Sequence record: KX828711
Reading direction: 5' to 3' (one strand)
Source of the DNA: Shigella phage SH7
Length of the DNA stretch: 64,000 bases
Under the pieces are notes generated by a model. It searched no databases. It had not been told where the DNA came from and saw only the letters and a list, made by a program, of their open reading frames with translations. The position numbers and the translations under genes are program-made. Below, piece by piece: positions 5,667 through 58,228 of the stretch (its first letter is position 1; every line of letters starts with the position of its first letter).

Positions 5667-5674
5667 TATAAATA
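5667..5674 (+). promoter_or_regulatory. Late promoter for uvsW
   Basis: TATAAATA 30 nt upstream of the uvsW ATG. Confidence 0.7.
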
Positions 5675-5703: not shown

Positions 5704-7215
5704 ATGACTGACATTAAAGTACATTTTTATGATTTTAGTCACGTGAGAATTGATTGTGAAGAAAGTACATTTCATGAACTCCGTGATTTCTTTAGCTTTG
5801 AAGCTGATGGGTATCGTTTTAATCCGAAATACAAATATGGCCACTGGGATGGACGAATCCGTCTTTTAGATTATAATCGCCTTCTTCCATTCGGCTTAGT
5901 CGGGCAAATTAAAAAGTTCTGTGATAACTTTGGCTATAAAGCCTGGATTGACCCACAAATTAACGAAAAAGAAGAATTATCAAGAAAAGATTTTGATGAA
6001 TGGCTTTCTAAATTAGAAATCTATTCAGGAAATAAAAGAATTGAACCACACTGGTATCAAAAAGATGCAGTGTTCGAAGGATTAGTTAATCGTCGTAGAA
6101 TTCTTAATCTTCCAACATCCGCCGGTAAATCTTTAATTCAAGCTTTGCTTGCACGTTATTATTTGGAAAATTATGAAGGTAAAATTCTTATCATTGTTCC
6201 AACAACTGCTTTAACAACTCAGATGGCTGATGACTTCGTTGACTATCGTTTATTCAGTCATGCAATGATAAAGAAAATCGGTGGAGGAGCATCAAAAGAT
6301 GATAAATATAAAAATGATGCACCAGTCGTTGTTGGTACATGGCAAACTGTAGTAAAACAACCAAAAGAATGGTTCTCACAGTTTGGAATGATGATGAATG
6401 ATGAATGCCATCTTGCTACAGGAAAAAGTATTTCATCTATCATATCAGGTTTAAATAACTGCATGTTCAAATTTGGTCTATCTGGTTCATTACGTGATGG
6501 CAAAGCCAATATCATGCAGTATGTTGGAATGTTTGGTGAAATATTTAAGCCAGTAACGACTTCTAAGTTAATGGAAGATGGACAAGTAACTGAGCTAAAA
6601 ATTAATAGTATTTTTCTTCGCTATCCCGATGAGTTCACTACTAAATTAAAGGGAAAAACTTATCAAGAAGAAATAAAAATTATTACGGGGCTTAGTAAAA
6701 GAAATAAATGGATCGCTAAATTAGCTATTAAGCTTGCGCAAAAAGATGAAAACGCTTTTGTCATGTTTAAACATGTATCGCATGGTAAAGCTATTTTCGA
6801 TTTAATTAAAAATGAATACGATAAAGTTTATTACGTATCAGGAGAAGTTGATACCGAAACCCGCAATATAATGAAAACCTTAGCTGAAAATGGTAAAGGA
6901 ATAATTATAGTAGCTAGTTATGGTGTATTTTCTACTGGTATTTCAGTTAAAAATCTGCATCACGTTGTTTTAGCGCACGGTGTTAAATCTAAAATTATTG
7001 TATTGCAAACAATCGGTCGTGTATTACGTAAGCATGGTTCTAAGACAATAGCAACAGTCTGGGACCTCATAGATGATTGTGGCGTTAAGCCAAAATCTGC
7101 TAATACGAAAAAGAAATATGTTCATTTGAACTATCTTTTAAAACACGGCATTGATCGTATTCAGCGCTACGCAGATGAAAAATTTAATTACGTAATGAAA
7201 ACAGTTAATTTATAA
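5704..7215 (+). CDS. uvsW: UvsW DNA/RNA helicase
   Basis: 503 aa; helicase motifs LPTSAGKS (Walker A) and MMMNDECH (DExH-type); T4 UvsW N-terminus MTDIKVHFYDFSHVRID. Confidence 0.93.
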   Translation: MTDIKVHFYDFSHVRIDCEESTFHELRDFFSFEADGYRFNPKYKYGHWDGRIRLLDYNRLLPFGLVGQIKKFCDNFGYKAWIDPQINEKEELSRKDFDEWLSKLEIYSGNKRIEPHWYQKDAVFEGLVNRRRILNLPTSAGKSLIQALLARYYLENYEGKILIIVPTTALTTQMADDFVDYRLFSHAMIKKIGGGASKDDKYKNDAPVVVGTWQTVVKQPKEWFSQFGMMMNDECHLATGKSISSIISGLNNCMFKFGLSGSLRDGKANIMQYVGMFGEIFKPVTTSKLMEDGQVTELKINSIFLRYPDEFTTKLKGKTYQEEIKIITGLSKRNKWIAKLAIKLAQKDENAFVMFKHVSHGKAIFDLIKNEYDKVYYVSGEVDTETRNIMKTLAENGKGIIIVASYGVFSTGISVKNLHHVVLAHGVKSKIIVLQTIGRVLRKHGSKTIATVWDLIDDCGVKPKSANTKKKYVHLNYLLKHGIDRIQRYADEKFNYVMKTVNL

Positions 7216-7229
7216 GGGCTTCGGCCCTT
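7214..7229 (+). terminator. Hairpin at the uvsW 3' end
   Basis: AAGGGC-TTCG-GCCCTT overlapping the uvsW stop; weak T-tract. Confidence 0.5.
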
Positions 7230-7240
7230 TGGAGAAAAAG

Positions 7241-7471
7241 ATGTTACTAGAATTTAAACAATTTCTTTATGAAGCTTCTATTGATGAATTTATGGGTAAA
7301 ATTGCCTCTTGTCAAACATTAGAAGGTTTAGAAGAACTTGAAGCTTATTATAAGAAAAGAGTTAAAGAAACTGAATTAAAAGATACTGATGACATCTCTG
7401 TGAGAGATGCTTTGGCAGGAAAAAGAGCTGAATTAGAAGATTCAGACGATGAAGTAGAAGAAAGCTTTTAA
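7241..7471 (+). CDS. uvsW.1: UvsW.1 small acidic protein
   Basis: ATG at 7241 (ORF track begins at an upstream TTG); 76 aa; immediately downstream of uvsW. Confidence 0.7.
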   Translation: MLLEFKQFLYEASIDEFMGKIASCQTLEGLEELEAYYKKRVKETELKDTDDISVRDALAGKRAELEDSDDEVEESF

Positions 7472-7480
7472 ATTAAAAAA

Positions 7481-7503
7481 GGCCCAACCAAAAAGGAAGG
7501 GCC
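7481..7503 (-). terminator. Putative terminator for the minus-strand uvsY-region transcript
   Basis: GGCCC/GGGCC 5 bp stem with 13 nt loop, followed on the minus strand by TTTTTT. Confidence 0.4.
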
Positions 7504-7526
7504 AAAACTATAGACTAAAGGTCACA

Positions 7527-7694
7527 CTATAGCAAAAGTTGTGTTTCATTTAATTGTTCTTCCGAACTTTCTGAAACTGGTAGTTCTTTAATGTAATTAT
7601 AGCAAGGCCCAGGATGTACAGGACCTTTGTCTGTTTCAACAACCAATGCAGAATCGATTGGAGTTTTACAGACAACACAAATCTTATCTGACAT
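7527..7694 (-). CDS. Small hypothetical protein with Cys pairs (uvsY-upstream ORF, missed by ORF track)
   Basis: 55 aa ORF MSDKICVVCKTPIDS...GPCYNY; ATG at 7694, TAG stop at 7527; late promoter upstream. Confidence 0.4.
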   Translation of the reverse strand: MSDKICVVCKTPIDSALVVETDKGPVHPGPCYNYIKELPVSESSEEQLNETQLLL

Positions 7695-7719
7695 GATTGT
7701 CTCCTCTGAATTATATATC

Positions 7720-7727
7720 TATTTATA
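7720..7727 (-). promoter_or_regulatory. Late promoter (minus strand) upstream of the uvsY-region small ORFs
   Basis: Minus strand reads TATAAATA about 25 nt upstream of the ATG at 7694. Confidence 0.5.
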
Positions 7728-7817
7728 ACCCCATCTTAAAACGCATTTCTTGTACACGCTTTAAACATGCTTCCATTTCTGCTAAAAGTCTAAATACTTC
7801 TTTATAATTTGTCATAT

Positions 7818-8045
7818 TTACCCCATATCTCTCATATGCATATCAATGCCCATATCTTTAGAATAAAAATATTCATCAAGATATCCGGCAAATTTTCCTT
7901 TAATATAAAGGACATCTTCACCACATGGGTGATCGGCCAGGATACGAATATCCTGACGCTTAAGATTATGCTTTTTCATTAAGAATTGAATTTCCGTTTC
8001 AAATTCTTCTTCATAATTAAAAGCATCATCAATGCTATATCTCAT
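7818..8045 (-). CDS. Hypothetical protein (uvsY-upstream ORF)
   Basis: 75 aa ORF ending at the uvsY start. Confidence 0.55.
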   Translation of the reverse strand: MRYSIDDAFNYEEEFETEIQFLMKKHNLKRQDIRILADHPCGEDVLYIKGKFAGYLDEYFYSKDMGIDMHMRDMG

Positions 8046-8458
8046 TATTTTCCAGCCTCAAATGCTCGCATGTCTTGAATATGCTTAATAGCAAATCCGC
8101 GTGATTTGATAGCATCAAGAGCTCCGCTACAGAAATCCAATAAAATTCCCCAATATTGTAATGAAGTATCAACTTTTAAAACATCCTTATCAGCTGATAG
8201 AACTGTCTTCATTTCTGATTTCTCATAGCGGTCCATACTAAATTCATCACCATCTCCTCGTCCCGAGTAGTAGTCTAATTTAGCTTTAAGAGCAACTTTT
8301 TTCTGTGCATCAATTCTAAGCATTTCCTTTTTAATACTTGAATGCTTATTAAGCCATTTACTATATAACATCACATTATTAGCTGCTTCATACTGTAATT
8401 TAGTCGAATCTATAAACACATCTTTCTTCAATTCTTCTTGAAGATCTTCTAATCTCAT
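8045..8458 (-). CDS. uvsY: UvsY recombination mediator
   Basis: 137 aa as in T4 UvsY; syntenic; MotA-dependent promoter upstream. Confidence 0.9.
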   Translation of the reverse strand: MRLEDLQEELKKDVFIDSTKLQYEAANNVMLYSKWLNKHSSIKKEMLRIDAQKKVALKAKLDYYSGRGDGDEFSMDRYEKSEMKTVLSADKDVLKVDTSLQYWGILLDFCSGALDAIKSRGFAIKHIQDMRAFEAGK

Positions 8459-8498
8459 ATTGTTCTCTATTCAATTGTTATTGGATGGACTTAGATTC

Positions 8499-8526
8499 AT
8501 TATACCACGTTTATACGTGAAGCATT
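8499..8526 (-). promoter_or_regulatory. Middle (MotA-dependent) promoter of uvsY; candidate oriF-type origin promoter
   Basis: Minus strand AATGCTTCA (MotA box) then 13 nt then TATAAT, about 35 nt upstream of the uvsY ATG. Confidence 0.65.
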
Positions 8527-8923
8527 ATACTCTATTACTGGAAGCCAGCTGCAGTTTTATCTGCTCAATATCATCAGGATTATCGATGACCGAAAAGCGT
8601 ATTTCTACTATCAGAGTATAATCATCATAAACTGGTATCACATTAACTGATAATTTATCAATACGTGGCTCATAGTTTCTTACTGCGCTTTCGATATTGC
8701 GCTCAACTGTGTCAGCAGTAAGAGGAGTCATATTTTCAAAAAGTTGGTCTGATAAATCACATCCAAATTCAGGGTCAAACGGTCTTGAACCTTTTCTTGT
8801 TGTAATAATTCCCAAAAGGCTATTTTTAATTGACCTTAATCCAAGGGATCTAGAAACGTCTTTGTCCCAATCCATTTTCATTTCTGGGTCGATGTCAGAA
8901 TAAAGCTTATTAATATTTGCCAT
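8525..8923 (-). CDS. 25: Baseplate wedge protein gp25
   Basis: 132 aa as in T4 gp25; syntenic. Confidence 0.9.
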   Translation of the reverse strand: MANINKLYSDIDPEMKMDWDKDVSRSLGLRSIKNSLLGIITTRKGSRPFDPEFGCDLSDQLFENMTPLTADTVERNIESAVRNYEPRIDKLSVNVIPVYDDYTLIVEIRFSVIDNPDDIEQIKLQLASSNRV

Positions 8924-9549
8924 TATAGTAACTCAAAGAACTCTTTGAGGCCTCTTATTACATGAGCATGGGTTTTTCCACACTCTGGACATTTAATTGG
9001 AACAGCCAAATAAACGGTAGGCTTTAAAAGCATATCTTTTATAGCCACAATATCTGACTCTGTGATGATAGAATATAAATCTTCTAGTTCCTTTTCATTT
9101 AAGTCTTCAACTGGAATGCTTTCCCCGTTAGCATGAATCGTTTCTATGCATGATACTATCATGTGGGCTATATTTTTATCATCAAAAATTTTAGGGTATC
9201 GGAATTTAATTTTAATGTCACCCAGTGTATACCAGAGGTCTTCTGGTGCATCTATTTGTGTATGTAATAGATTTATATGGGTCGGTATTTCAGTTCCACA
9301 GGTGCACTTCCAGGAGTTTTCGTGATTAACTTCGCCGAGAGAATGTGCCCATAAATGAATCAACAATAGTTCTGATTCTTGGCGGTTTAAATCTTTTGCA
9401 TTTGTGCAGTCTTTGATTAGCTTTTTAACAATTACTTCTACAGAACCATTATTTTTGGCAGTAATAAGTTCTAGATATTCTTTAAGCGTGAATGCGCGAC
9501 AATTGATTATTTTAGAACCAACTCTCACATCAAATTTGTATTCATACAT
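8923..9549 (-). CDS. 26: Baseplate hub protein gp26
   Basis: 208 aa as in T4 gp26; divergent from gene 51. Confidence 0.85.
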
Positions 9550-9570
9550 ATTTAGCTCCTTTATTTATCA

Positions 9571-9582
9571 TATTTATAAATA
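9571..9582. promoter_or_regulatory. Palindromic divergent late promoters for genes 26 (-) and 51 (+)
   Basis: TATTTATAAATA is its own reverse complement and holds TATAAATA on both strands, about 20 nt from each start codon. Confidence 0.75.
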
Positions 9583-9599
9583 GAATAAAAGGAGCATCT

Positions 9600-10349
9600 A
9601 TGGCAAACATTATTCGTTGTAAATTACCAGATGGTGTTCATCGTTTTAAACCATTTACGGTAGAAGATTATCGAGATTTTTTGTTAGTTCGAAACGATAT
9701 AGAACATCGGTCACCACAAGAACAAAAAGAAGTAATTGCTGATTTAATTGCTGATTATTTTGGAGACTATCCAAAGACTTGGCAACCATTTATATTTTTG
9801 CAGGTATTTGTAGGGTCAATAGGTAAAACTAAAGTACCAGTCACATTTGTATGTCCAAAATGTAAAAAAGAAAAGACAGTTCCATTTGAAATATACCAAA
9901 AAGAATTAAAGGAGCCTGTTTTTGATGTAGCTAATGTTAAAATTAAATTAAAGTTTCCTTCTGAGTTTTATGAAAATAAAGCAAAGATGATTACTGAAAA
10001 TATTCATTCTGTTCAAGTAGATGAAATATGGTATGATTGGAAGGAAATTAGTGAATCAAGCCAAATAGAACTTGTTGATGCCATCGAGATAGAAACATTA
10101 GAAAAAATTCTCGATGCAATGAATCCTATTAATTTAACATTGCATATGTCCTGCTGTGATAAGTATGTAAAAAAATACACTGATATAGTAGATGTGTTTA
10201 AGCTATTAGTTAACCCAGATGAGATATTTACTTTTTATCAAATTAATCACACACTCGTAAAAAGTAATTATAGCTTAAATTCAATAATGAAAATGATTCC
10301 TGCCGAGCGCGGATTCGTATTAAAACTGATTGAGAAGGATAAACAATAA
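9600..10349 (+). CDS. 51: Baseplate hub assembly protein gp51
   Basis: 249 aa as in T4 gp51. Confidence 0.85.
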
Positions 10350-44951: not shown

Positions 44952-47900
44952 ATGGCCGAGATTAAAAGAAAGTTCAGAGCAGAAGATGGTCTGGACGCAG
45001 GTGGCGATAAAATAATCAACGTAGCTTTAGCTGATCGTGCCGTAGGAACTGACGGTGTTAACGTTGATTACCTAATTCAAGAAAACACAGTTCAACAATA
45101 CGATCCAACTCGTGGATATTTAAAAGATTTTGTAATCATTTATGATAACCGTTTTTGGGCTGCTATAAATGATATTCCAAAACCAGCGGGAGCTTTTAAT
45201 AGCGTACGCTGGAGAGCATTACGTACTGATGCTAATTGGACAACTGTTTCATCAGGACCTTATCAATTAAAGTCAGGTGAATCAATTTCAGTTAATACTG
45301 CAGCAGGAAATGATATCACATTTACTTTGCCAACTTCTCCAATTGATGGAGATACTATCGTTCTTCAAGATATTGGTGGAAAACCCGGAGTTAACCAAGT
45401 TTTAATTGTAGCTCCAGTGCAAAGTATTGTAAACTTTAGAGGCGAACAAGTACGATCAGTACTAATGACCCATCCAAAATCACAGATAGTTTTAATTTTT
45501 AGTAATCGTCTGTGGCAAATGTATGTGGCTGATTATAGCAGAGAAGCGGTAGTTGTGACGCCAGCAAGTCTCTACCAGGCGCAGTCAAACGATTTTATCG
45601 TGCGCAGATTTACTTCTGCTGCACCGATAAATATTAAACTTCCGAGATTTGCTAATCATGGCGATATTATTAATTTCGTTGATTTAGATAAATTAAATCC
45701 TCTTTATCATACAATTGTTACTACATATGATGAAACTACATCAGTACAAGAAGATGGAACTCATTCCATTGAAGGCCGTACATCTATTGATGGTTTCTTG
45801 ATGTATGATGATAATGAGAAATTATGGAGATTATTTGACGGGGATAGTAAAGCACGTTTACGTGTTATAACAACTAATTCTAATATTCGTCCAAACGAAG
45901 AAGTTATGGTATTTGGTGCGAATAATGGAACAACTCAAACAATTGAACTTCAGCTTCCGACCGATATTTCCATTGGCGATACTGTTAAAATTTCCATGAA
46001 TTACATGAGAAAAGGCCAAACAGTTAAAATCAAAGCTGCCGGTGAAGATAAAATTGCTTCTTCAGTTCAATTGCTGCAATTCCCAAAACGTTCAGAATAT
46101 CCGCCTGAGGCTGAATGGGTGACTGTTCAAGAATTAGTTTTTAACGGTGAAACTAATTATGTTCCAGTTTTACAACTTGCTTATATAGAAGATTCTGACG
46201 GAAAATACTGGGTTGTACAGCAAAACGTTCCAACAGTTGAAAGAGTCGATTCTTTAAATAATTCTACTAGAGCAAGATTAGGCGTAATTGCTTTAGCTAC
46301 ACAAGCTCAAGCTAACGTCGATTTAGAAAATTCTCCACAAAAAGAATTAGCAATTACCCCAGAAACATTAGCTAACCGTACTGCTACAGAAACTCGTAGA
46401 GGTATCGCAAGAATAGCAACTACCGCCCAAGTGAATCAGGATACTACATTCTCTTTTGCTGACGATATTATCATCACTCCTAAAAAGCTGAATGAAAGAA
46501 CTGCTACAGAAACTCGTAGAGGTGTTGCTGAAATTGCTACGCAACAAGAAACTAATACAGGTACTGATGATACTACGATCATCACTCCTAAAAAGCTTCA
46601 AGCTCGTCAGGGTTCTGAATCATTATCTGGTATTGTAACTTTTGTATCTACTGCAGGTGCTACTCCAGCTTCTAGCCGTGAATTAAATGGTACGAATGTT
46701 TATAATAAAAACACTAATAATTTAGTTGTTTCACCTAAAGCTTTGGATCAGTATAAAGCTACTCCAACACAACAAGGTGCGGTAATTTTAGCAGTTGAAA
46801 GTGAAGTAATTGCTGGACAAAGTCAGGAAGGATGGGCAAATGCGGTTGTAACACCAGAAACGTTACATAAAAAGACATCAACTGATGGAAGAATTGGTTT
46901 AATTGAAATTGCTACGCAAAGTGAAGTTAATACAGGAACTGATTATACCCGTGCAGTCACTCCTAAAACTTTAAATGACCGTAGAGCAACTGAAAGTTTA
47001 AGTGGTATAGCTGAAATTGCTACACAGGTTGAATTCGACGCAGGCGTCGACGATACTCGTATCTCTACACCATTAAAAATTAAAACCAGATTTAATAGTA
47101 CTGATCGTACTTCTGTTGTTGCTCTATCTGGATTAGTTGAATCAGGAACTCTCTGGGACCATTATACCCTTAATATTCTTGAAGCAAATGAGACACAGCG
47201 TGGTACACTTCGTGTAGCTACACAGGTCGAAGCTGCTGCAGGAACATTAGATAATGTTTTAATAACTCCTAAAAAGCTTTTAGGTACTAAATCTACTGAA
47301 GCACAGGAAGGTGTTATTAAAGTTGCAACTCAGTCTGAAACTGTGACTGGAACATCAGCAAATACTGCTGTATCTCCAAAAAATTTAAAATGGATTGTGC
47401 AGAGCGAACCTACCTGGGCAGCTACTACTGCGATAAGGGGATTTGTTAAAACTTCATCTGGTTCAATTACGTTCGTTGGTAATGATACAGTCGGTTCTAC
47501 TCAAGATTTAGAACTGTATGAGAAAAATAGCTATGCAGTATCACCATATGAATTAAACCGTGTATTAGCAAATTATTTGCCATTAAAAGCAAAAGCTGTA
47601 GATAGTAATTTATTGGATGGTCTAGATTCATCTCAGTTCATTCGTAGGGATATTGCGCAGACAGTTAATGGTTCACTAACCTTAACCCAACAAACGAATC
47701 TGAGTGCCCCTCTTGTATCATCTAGTACTGCTACGTTTGGTGGTTCAGTTTCGGCAAATAGTACATTGTCTATTTCTAACACTGGAACGACTTCTTCTCG
47801 ATTTACATTTGAGAAAGGTCCTGCTTCTGGTAGTAATGCTGATTCTGCATTGCATGTTCGTGTATGGGGTAATAAGTACAGCGGCGGTTCTGATGTAACT

Positions 47901-55500: not shown

Positions 55501-55773
55501 TTATTTGTTTGTATACATCTCTAGATATCGATATACACCCTCAAAACCCTCGTTGAATTCGTCGATGAGGGTTTTCTTATCTTCTTGAGTTAATTCAGAA
55601 ACAATTTTACGGAATGAATTCTGATTTAATTTTCTACCTTCATGCGTTACTCCAATCTCATTCAGAAATGCAATAAAATTAGCACGATTTTCAACAATAT
55701 CTTCTCTGGAAAATTTAATTAAAATAGACGCAACAGTAATAATTTCACGAACTGTATCAATATTTTTATTCAT
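55501..55773 (-). CDS. asiA: AsiA anti-sigma-70 factor
   Basis: 90 aa as in T4 AsiA; MNKNIDTVREIITVASILIKFSRED. Confidence 0.93.
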   Translation of the reverse strand: MNKNIDTVREIITVASILIKFSREDIVENRANFIAFLNEIGVTHEGRKLNQNSFRKIVSELTQEDKKTLIDEFNEGFEGVYRYLEMYTNK

Positions 55774-57592: not shown

Positions 57593-58228
57593 TCACAGTT
57601 CAGATGCTACAGTGATTACAGCTTCAATGTTTTCTGCCGAGCGTTTAATGTCAAGATACACATTACCGTTTTTAGCGATTTTACATGACATTCCGATATC
57701 AGTAAATTTCTGAATATGATGTTCCATCATTTTGTATCCAAAAATTCGCATATTTCCATTGTTGTTAATTTCAAAATTACGAATTCCGTGAGTGCGTTTT
57801 TCTAAAATAGCGAGATAATTACTACGATAAGTTTCAACCTTTTTAAGAACAAATCCATTTTCATCTAAAAGTTTTAACATGAGGTCTTTATCTTCTTCCA
57901 TATCGGAAGTAATCTCGCGAGCTTTACGAGTTGCTCGTTTTTTCAGCAGTTCCGGAGCATTTTCCTGTGCATATAAAGTTGCTGCATTTGAAATAATATC
58001 CTGAGCTTCACCAGTAATGATTAATCCATCACCAGATTTCTCCACCAGGCCTTTTTTAATCAATACCCCAATATTACTATTAACTACTGCGTTACCTAAA
58101 TCTGGATGCACCTCACGAACTTCTGCAGCTGTAATGAAATCTTTCTTAGCAATGGTAATTAAAATCGTAGCAGTTTTTTCATTCAGAACATCGTTAGAAG
58201 CTTTGATGATGTAAGTTACTTTAGACAT
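57593..58228 (-). CDS. motA: MotA middle-transcription activator
   Basis: 211 aa as in T4 MotA; MSKVTYIIKASNDVLNEKTATILITIAKKDF. Confidence 0.93.
   Translation of the reverse strand: MSKVTYIIKASNDVLNEKTATILITIAKKDFITAAEVREVHPDLGNAVVNSNIGVLIKKGLVEKSGDGLIITGEAQDIISNAATLYAQENAPELLKKRATRKAREITSDMEEDKDLMLKLLDENGFVLKKVETYRSNYLAILEKRTHGIRNFEINNNGNMRIFGYKMMEHHIQKFTDIGMSCKIAKNGNVYLDIKRSAENIEAVITVASEL

Follow-up and report, generated by a model that had tools for sequence, protein, structure and literature searches.

A MotA-type promoter upstream of uvsY in Shigella phage SH7 and its likely counterpart, the T4 replication origin oriF

In bacteriophage T4, the promoter of uvsY (PuvsY, with its start at 115371) is among the mapped MotA-dependent middle promoters (Table 1 of PMC2988021) and drives a replication origin through an R-loop (PMC2988021; PMC3016281). 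Promoters of this class combine a MotA box, with the consensus (a/t)(a/t)(a/t)TGCTTtA, and a −10 element TAtaaT at a distance of 12 ± 1 bp, and they require that this −10 be excellent (PMC2988021). The origin, oriF, spans about 100 bp and comprises the middle promoter and a downstream unwinding element (DUE), in which the transcript forms a persistent R-loop and, probably processed by RNase H, primes the leading strand (PMC3016281). Formation of the R-loop is independent of specific sequence, heterologous unwinding elements can replace the DUE, and the origin is silenced late, when middle transcription is lost and UvsW unwinds the R-loop (PMC3016281). Autonomous replication of a plasmid with this fragment in infected cells, or origin activity in the genome, has been established for T4 only (PMC3016281, which summarises the work of Kreuzer & Alberts, Menkens & Kreuzer (1988) and Carles-Kinch & Kreuzer (1997)). 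The T4 record AF158101 annotates oriF (oriuvsY) as a rep_origin at 115321 with (−) strand direction and gives the uvsY transcript as its primer RNA.

The second known R-loop origin of T4, oriG (ori34), is annotated at 152.9–153.1 kb, where P34i starts (PMC2988021). Its layout, a MotA-dependent promoter made of TGCTTCA, a 13-nt spacer and TATAAT that is followed by an unwinding element, resembles what we describe below for uvsY, although this origin, also written ori(34)/P34i, is unrelated in sequence, lies inside gene 34 in antisense orientation and does not act as the mRNA promoter of a downstream gene. ColE1-type origins and Escherichia coli oriK likewise depend on the persistent RNA–DNA hybrid of a promoter transcript, which is processed and primes the leading strand (comparison in PMC3016281). 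The RNA II of ColE1 is long and structured and is used with host RNase H and Pol I, whereas a T4-type origin relies on a leader that is short and unstructured, on an activator encoded by the phage and on the phage's own replisome; the two share no sequence relationship.

Here, we describe the corresponding site in Shigella phage SH7 (KX828711), working on a 64,000-nt stretch of this genome that we refer to as the window. We consider the site very probably orthologous to T4 PuvsY, which in T4 is also oriF (ori uvsY), that is, a MotA/AsiA promoter joined to an R-loop origin. An initial annotation of the window had stated that the T4 uvsY middle promoter doubles as an origin primed by its own transcript, which agrees with the oriF entry in AF158101 and with both papers cited above (PMC2988021; PMC3016281). 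The element is already known, its mechanism and regulation having been worked out in T4 decades ago, and the scientific gain is small: such elements are recognisable from sequence alone, and the uvsY promoter, the probable oriF and the probable oriG of this phage can be labelled with confidence in its annotation. Two modest points are new, namely that the −10 and the placement of the box at the gene 25 stop are kept in at least five genera of the Tevenvirinae, and that T4 carries an unusual, duplicated 10-nt unit (further expanded in mutants) of which the window has the common single copy.

The uvsY locus and its promoter elements

The window belongs to a Tequatrovirus, its locus being 98.2% identical to that of RB27 and at least 97% identical to those of hundreds of Tequatrovirus genomes, which makes its source T4-like but distinct from T4. 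Its UvsY matches that of RB32 and others at 100% identity. The gene is part of a minus-strand array (Table 1) on which uvsW and uvsW.1 (5704–7471, plus strand) converge, and gene 51 diverges from 9600. The uvsW gene lies about 1.3 kb downstream of the start site predicted below and has an TATAAATA motif (5667–5674) 30 nt upstream of it. Genes for three trans factors, motA, asiA and uvsW, are present in the window. An Rfam scan of 7000–10000 returned no known RNA family, a repeat search gave short chance-level repeats only and no iterons, and the GC-skew profile merely follows the switches of coding strand and is uninformative on an origin.

Table 1 Features of the uvsY locus and trans-acting genes in the window
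Feature	Coordinates	Strand	Basis and remarks
Gene 26	8923–9549	minus	ORF list
Gene 25, baseplate wedge subunit	8525–8923	minus	ORF; annotations of matching records
MotA box AATGCTTCA	8518–8526	minus	Sequence read; identical to T4
Sigma-70 −10 TATAAT, perfect	8499–8504	minus	Sequence read; 13 nt 3′ of the MotA box
Predicted transcription start, A8492	8492	minus	T4 PuvsY start 115371 mapped via alignment
Putative unwinding element/R-loop zone	8440–8491	minus	uvsY leader and first codons; boundaries approximate
uvsY, recombination mediator, 137 aa	8045–8458	minus	ORF; ATG at 8458–8456
uvsY.-1	7818–8045	minus	ORF list
Late-promoter motif TATAAATA	7720–7727	minus	Upstream of uvsY.-2; TATAAATA also at this position in T4
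uvsY.-2	7527–7694	minus	ORF list
uvsW, 503 aa	5704–7215	plus	ORF; annotated as RNA–DNA/DNA–DNA helicase in relatives
asiA, co-activator/anti-sigma factor for middle promoters	55501–55773	minus	tblastn with T4 AsiA, 100%
motA, activator binding the MotA box	57593–58228	minus	tblastn with T4 MotA, 98.6% over full length

The promoter signals begin at the end of gene 25, where the stop codon and the MotA box overlap. The initial annotation had called a MotA box at 8518–8526 on the minus strand over this stop, and a TATAAT −10 at 8499–8504; both are present on that strand, with the TAA (8527–8525) sharing two bases with AATGCTTCA. Read together with the preceding T, the box is TAATGCTTCA (8527–8518, minus strand), which fits (a/t)(a/t)(a/t)TGCTTtA, has its centre near −30 and departs from the consensus solely by a C at a weakly conserved t/c position. 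The spacer between box and −10 is 13 nt long (8517–8505, minus strand) and falls inside the 12 ± 1 rule. A sigma-70 scan of 7400–9700 found no −35/−10 pair using this −10, there is no −35-like hexamer at 16–18 nt from it and a TGn extension is absent (GGTATAAT); a −10 with no paired −35 is the signature expected of a middle promoter. We regard it as near certain that 8526–8499 is the promoter of uvsY, a middle promoter that would depend on MotA and AsiA.

Transferred through the alignment, the T4 start at 115371, whose distance from the −10 of T4 is exactly 7 nt, maps to A8492, likewise placed 7 nt after the −10, and would give uvsY a leader of 34 nt. The promoter had been put about 35 nt upstream of uvsY in the initial annotation, a distance that holds for the predicted start, 34 nt before the ATG, but not for the motifs, which lie 41–68 nt upstream.

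Two further candidates in the neighbourhood were considered. A TATAAT at 8529–8524 with a GCTT at 8545–8542 was rejected as a second middle promoter, the gap between them being only 10 nt and outside 12 ± 1. Inside uvsY, an AATGCTT at 8318–8324 (minus strand) occupies the position of an internal 'mot box' in the T4 record M77695; as no −10-like hexamer stands at the right distance, it is probably not a promoter.

Correspondence to T4 and to other Tevenvirinae

Over 221 aligned nucleotides, which begin at the end of gene 25 and run into uvsY as far as codon 25, the window differs from T4 by two spacer bases and a 10-nt indel, whereas the MotA box, the −10, the predicted start and the initial transcribed region are identical throughout, as is the overlap with the gene 25 stop. 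In the T4 record M77695 the homologous bases are labelled 'mot box', over that stop, and 'TATA_box', and the earlier designation as uvsY middle promoter is borne out by this identity. The likeness extends to the position between gene 25 and uvsY, to the convergent uvsW downstream and to the presence of MotA, AsiA and UvsW. The annotated oriF point of T4, 115321, lies 6 nt inside uvsY and corresponds to position 8452 of the window. As for the differences, T4 has two copies of the 10-nt unit ATCCAATAAC and a leader of 44 nt, whereas the window has one copy, at 8486–8477 (minus strand) in the uvsY leader and putative unwinding element, and a leader of 34 nt.

The two spacer differences are adjacent and turn CGTTAAAACG of T4 into CGTATAAACG of the window. 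They fall in an inverted repeat at 8505–8519 (minus strand), CACGT-ATAA-ACGTG in the window and CACGTT-AA-AACGTG in T4, so that it measures 5 bp instead of the 6 bp of T4. Close relatives carry either allele, both being common, and other genera lack the repeat.

Across the 64-kb window, the strict pattern TGCTTYA-N11-13-TATAAT has 2 matches against 0.07 expected, a count reached in none of 100 shuffles, and the relaxed pattern TGCTTYA-N11-13-TANNNT has 9 against 2.6 expected. The second strict match, TGCTTCAAGAATATTAAGGGTATAAT (47186–47161, minus strand), aligns to T4 152.9–153.1 kb, and by this alignment 47161–47186 can be assigned as the homologue of T4 P34i/oriG, inside gene 34. Thus, the strict-pattern matches make the best two MotA-type promoters of the window homologues of the two known R-loop origins of T4. 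The oriG homologue has 4 base differences from T4 over 183 aligned nucleotides, one of which abolishes the extended −10 TGn of T4 (GTGTATAAT in T4, GGGTATAAT in the window).

For comparison, uvsY loci were gathered from IMG/VR and from GenBank phages across genera. TATAATG is invariant in Tequatrovirus, Mosigvirus, Karamvirus, Jiaodavirus and Dhakavirus, and the same genera have a (T/C)GCT-type box near the end of gene 25. In the four genera other than Tequatrovirus, the box reads AATGCTTCA, ATCGCTTAC, ATCGCTTTC, AATGCTAAC or ATTGCTGTA and stands 12–13 nt before TATAATG as counted by eye, and in most of these the gene 25 stop falls inside its A/T-rich 5′ part. The noncoding spacer between gene 25 and uvsY has diverged in Mosigvirus, Karamvirus, Jiaodavirus and Dhakavirus (mean column identity of 62%, coding flanks included), and the retention of TATAATG and box amid this divergence argues for selection on the promoter itself. 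Roskildevirus and Muldoonvirus have ambiguous boxes only. The more distant Krischvirus, Cinqassovirus, Slopekvirus and KVP40 were set aside, as their gene order is broken or the region upstream of uvsY shows no MotA-type promoter. The corresponding leader of Mosigvirus has no A+T richness (58–60% compared to a locus mean of 63%); consequently, conservation of the promoter alone is no proof that the origin is conserved, and some phages may keep the promoter without the unwinding property.

The copy number of the 10-nt unit was surveyed with a 111-nt T4 query spanning the repeat, which matched 498 phage records. One copy of ATCCAATAAC (a 101-nt match) is found in 481 of these, or roughly 97% of Tequatrovirus records, and the two-copy form in 16–17, which are T4, T4T, RB55 and RB59 only. 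Four and five copies occur in T4_583L (MZ375356) and T4_7t1 (OL964745), respectively, mutant T4 clones with shortened genomes for which a literature search found no papers. The presence of 1, 2, 4 and 5 copies across records indicates that ATCCAATAAC is prone to tandem copy-number change, and judging from these records one copy is the norm and the allele of the laboratory T4 reference is the unusual one. That the unit is a copy-number-variable module tuning origin firing or uvsY expression seems doubtful to us; if it were, T4 would have an oriF allele that is strengthened and atypical, and firing could differ in the natural form with one copy. The sequence independence of the T4 unwinding element (PMC3016281) argues that a single copy is tolerated.

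The downstream element and the reading as an origin

Downstream of the predicted start, the 60–100 bp from +1 have an A+T content of 70–71%, compared to a window mean of 64%, and rank at the 85–92nd percentile by A+T and at the 88–95th by duplex stability; depending on width, their duplex is less stable than 80–95% of same-sized segments, an enrichment rather than an extreme. The RNA-like strand is 63–65% purine (97–99th percentile), a richness that stems in part from the Glu/Lys-rich N terminus of UvsY. A nearest-neighbour comparison of RNA–DNA hybrid and duplex stability marks the region as unremarkable, but here the A+T and purine figures alone are to be relied on. The first 80 transcribed nucleotides, when folded, lack significant structure (z = −0.7), which gives no support to reading them as a structured leader or riboswitch. 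These properties of the leader fit an unwinding, R-loop-prone element, but not an extreme one.

In our reading, 8526–8499 and about 50 bp downstream very probably constitute the orthologue of T4 oriF. The experiments on T4 lead us to expect that transcription here would depend on MotA and begin at the predicted start, that an R-loop would form and that the origin would fire. The interval of 8499–8526 initially proposed for the origin covers its promoter part; since the functional origin of T4, of about 100 bp, includes the downstream unwinding element, the origin would reach beyond that interval, to roughly 8440 and into uvsY.

In the likely mechanism, AsiA would remodel region 4 of sigma-70 within a few minutes of infection, MotA would occupy the box at 8526–8518, and RNA polymerase, using TATAAT at 8504–8499, would initiate minus-strand transcription at about A8492. 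The resulting transcript would act as uvsY mRNA, and a fraction of it would stay on the template in the A+T- and purine-rich stretch of about 8491–8440 as a persistent R-loop. The RNA of this R-loop would be processed, probably by phage RNase H, and its 3′ end would prime the leading strand toward lower coordinates, that is, toward uvsW, while on the displaced strand gp59 would load the gp41/61 primosome. Late in infection, the origin would be shut off as middle transcription ends and UvsW (5704–7215) unwinds the R-loops.

Two other readings would remove the site from the middle promoters altogether. An ordinary host-type (early) sigma-70 promoter, independent of MotA/AsiA, would suit the perfect TATAAT −10, but such a promoter would here lack both the −35-like hexamer, none being paired with this −10 by the scan, and the TGn extension, it would carry a consensus MotA box at the canonical distance, and its T4 homologue is among the mapped MotA-dependent middle promoters (PMC2988021); we consider it very improbable. 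The motifs might also co-occur by chance, as short A/T-rich motifs abound in a window of 64% A+T and TATAAATA, for one, is not enriched. Yet the strict pattern is far above its chance expectation, both of its matches fall at homologues of T4 origins, and TATAATG is invariant in five genera amid diverged noncoding DNA, so that the likelihood of chance is negligible and, from these pattern counts and alignments, we take it to be effectively refuted already.

A closer rival accepts a genuine MotA-dependent uvsY promoter and holds that no origin fires here, origin activity being a peculiarity of T4, for instance through the duplicated 10-nt unit that lengthens its unwinding element. With one copy of ATCCAATAAC, the window does have an element that falls 10 nt short of the one studied in T4, and two copies occur only in T4, T4T, RB55 and RB59, compared to one copy in 481 of the 498 records; every origin experiment used T4, and the A+T richness of the leader is not kept in Mosigvirus. 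It also counts against our own reading that the downstream element is just moderately A+T-rich and unremarkable in hybrid versus duplex stability. However, the R-loop of T4 oriF is sequence-independent and its DUE replaceable by heterologous elements (PMC3016281), the A+T fraction over +1 to +60 is 0.70 in the window and 0.70 in T4, the A+T- and purine-rich tract runs on into uvsY, and the promoter of the second R-loop origin of T4 is also kept in the window. Weighing these points, we find a promoter without origin firing distinctly unlikely and favour the reading of the site as PuvsY and oriF orthologue in one.

Late-promoter motifs in the array

The initial annotation also noted a separate late promoter at 7720–7727, and TATAAATA is indeed found there on the minus strand, upstream of uvsY.-2, with T4 conserving the motif. 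This motif occurs 12 times in the window against 9.2 expected, a count not above chance, so that it is position and conservation that carry the call.

Between uvsY.-1 and uvsY.-2, a segment of about 100 nt (7723–7815, minus strand) is missing from T4. It is found in 43 phage records and encodes an unannotated 30-aa ORF, MTNYKEVFRLLAEMEACLKRVQEMRFKMGL, whose stop codon lies inside TATAAATA; in RB27 the ORF is likewise without annotation. At 9571–9582, two overlapping TATAAATA motifs on opposite strands (9571–9578 minus, 9575–9582 plus) lie within the 50-nt gap between the divergent genes 26 and 51, and from this arrangement they look like back-to-back late promoters.
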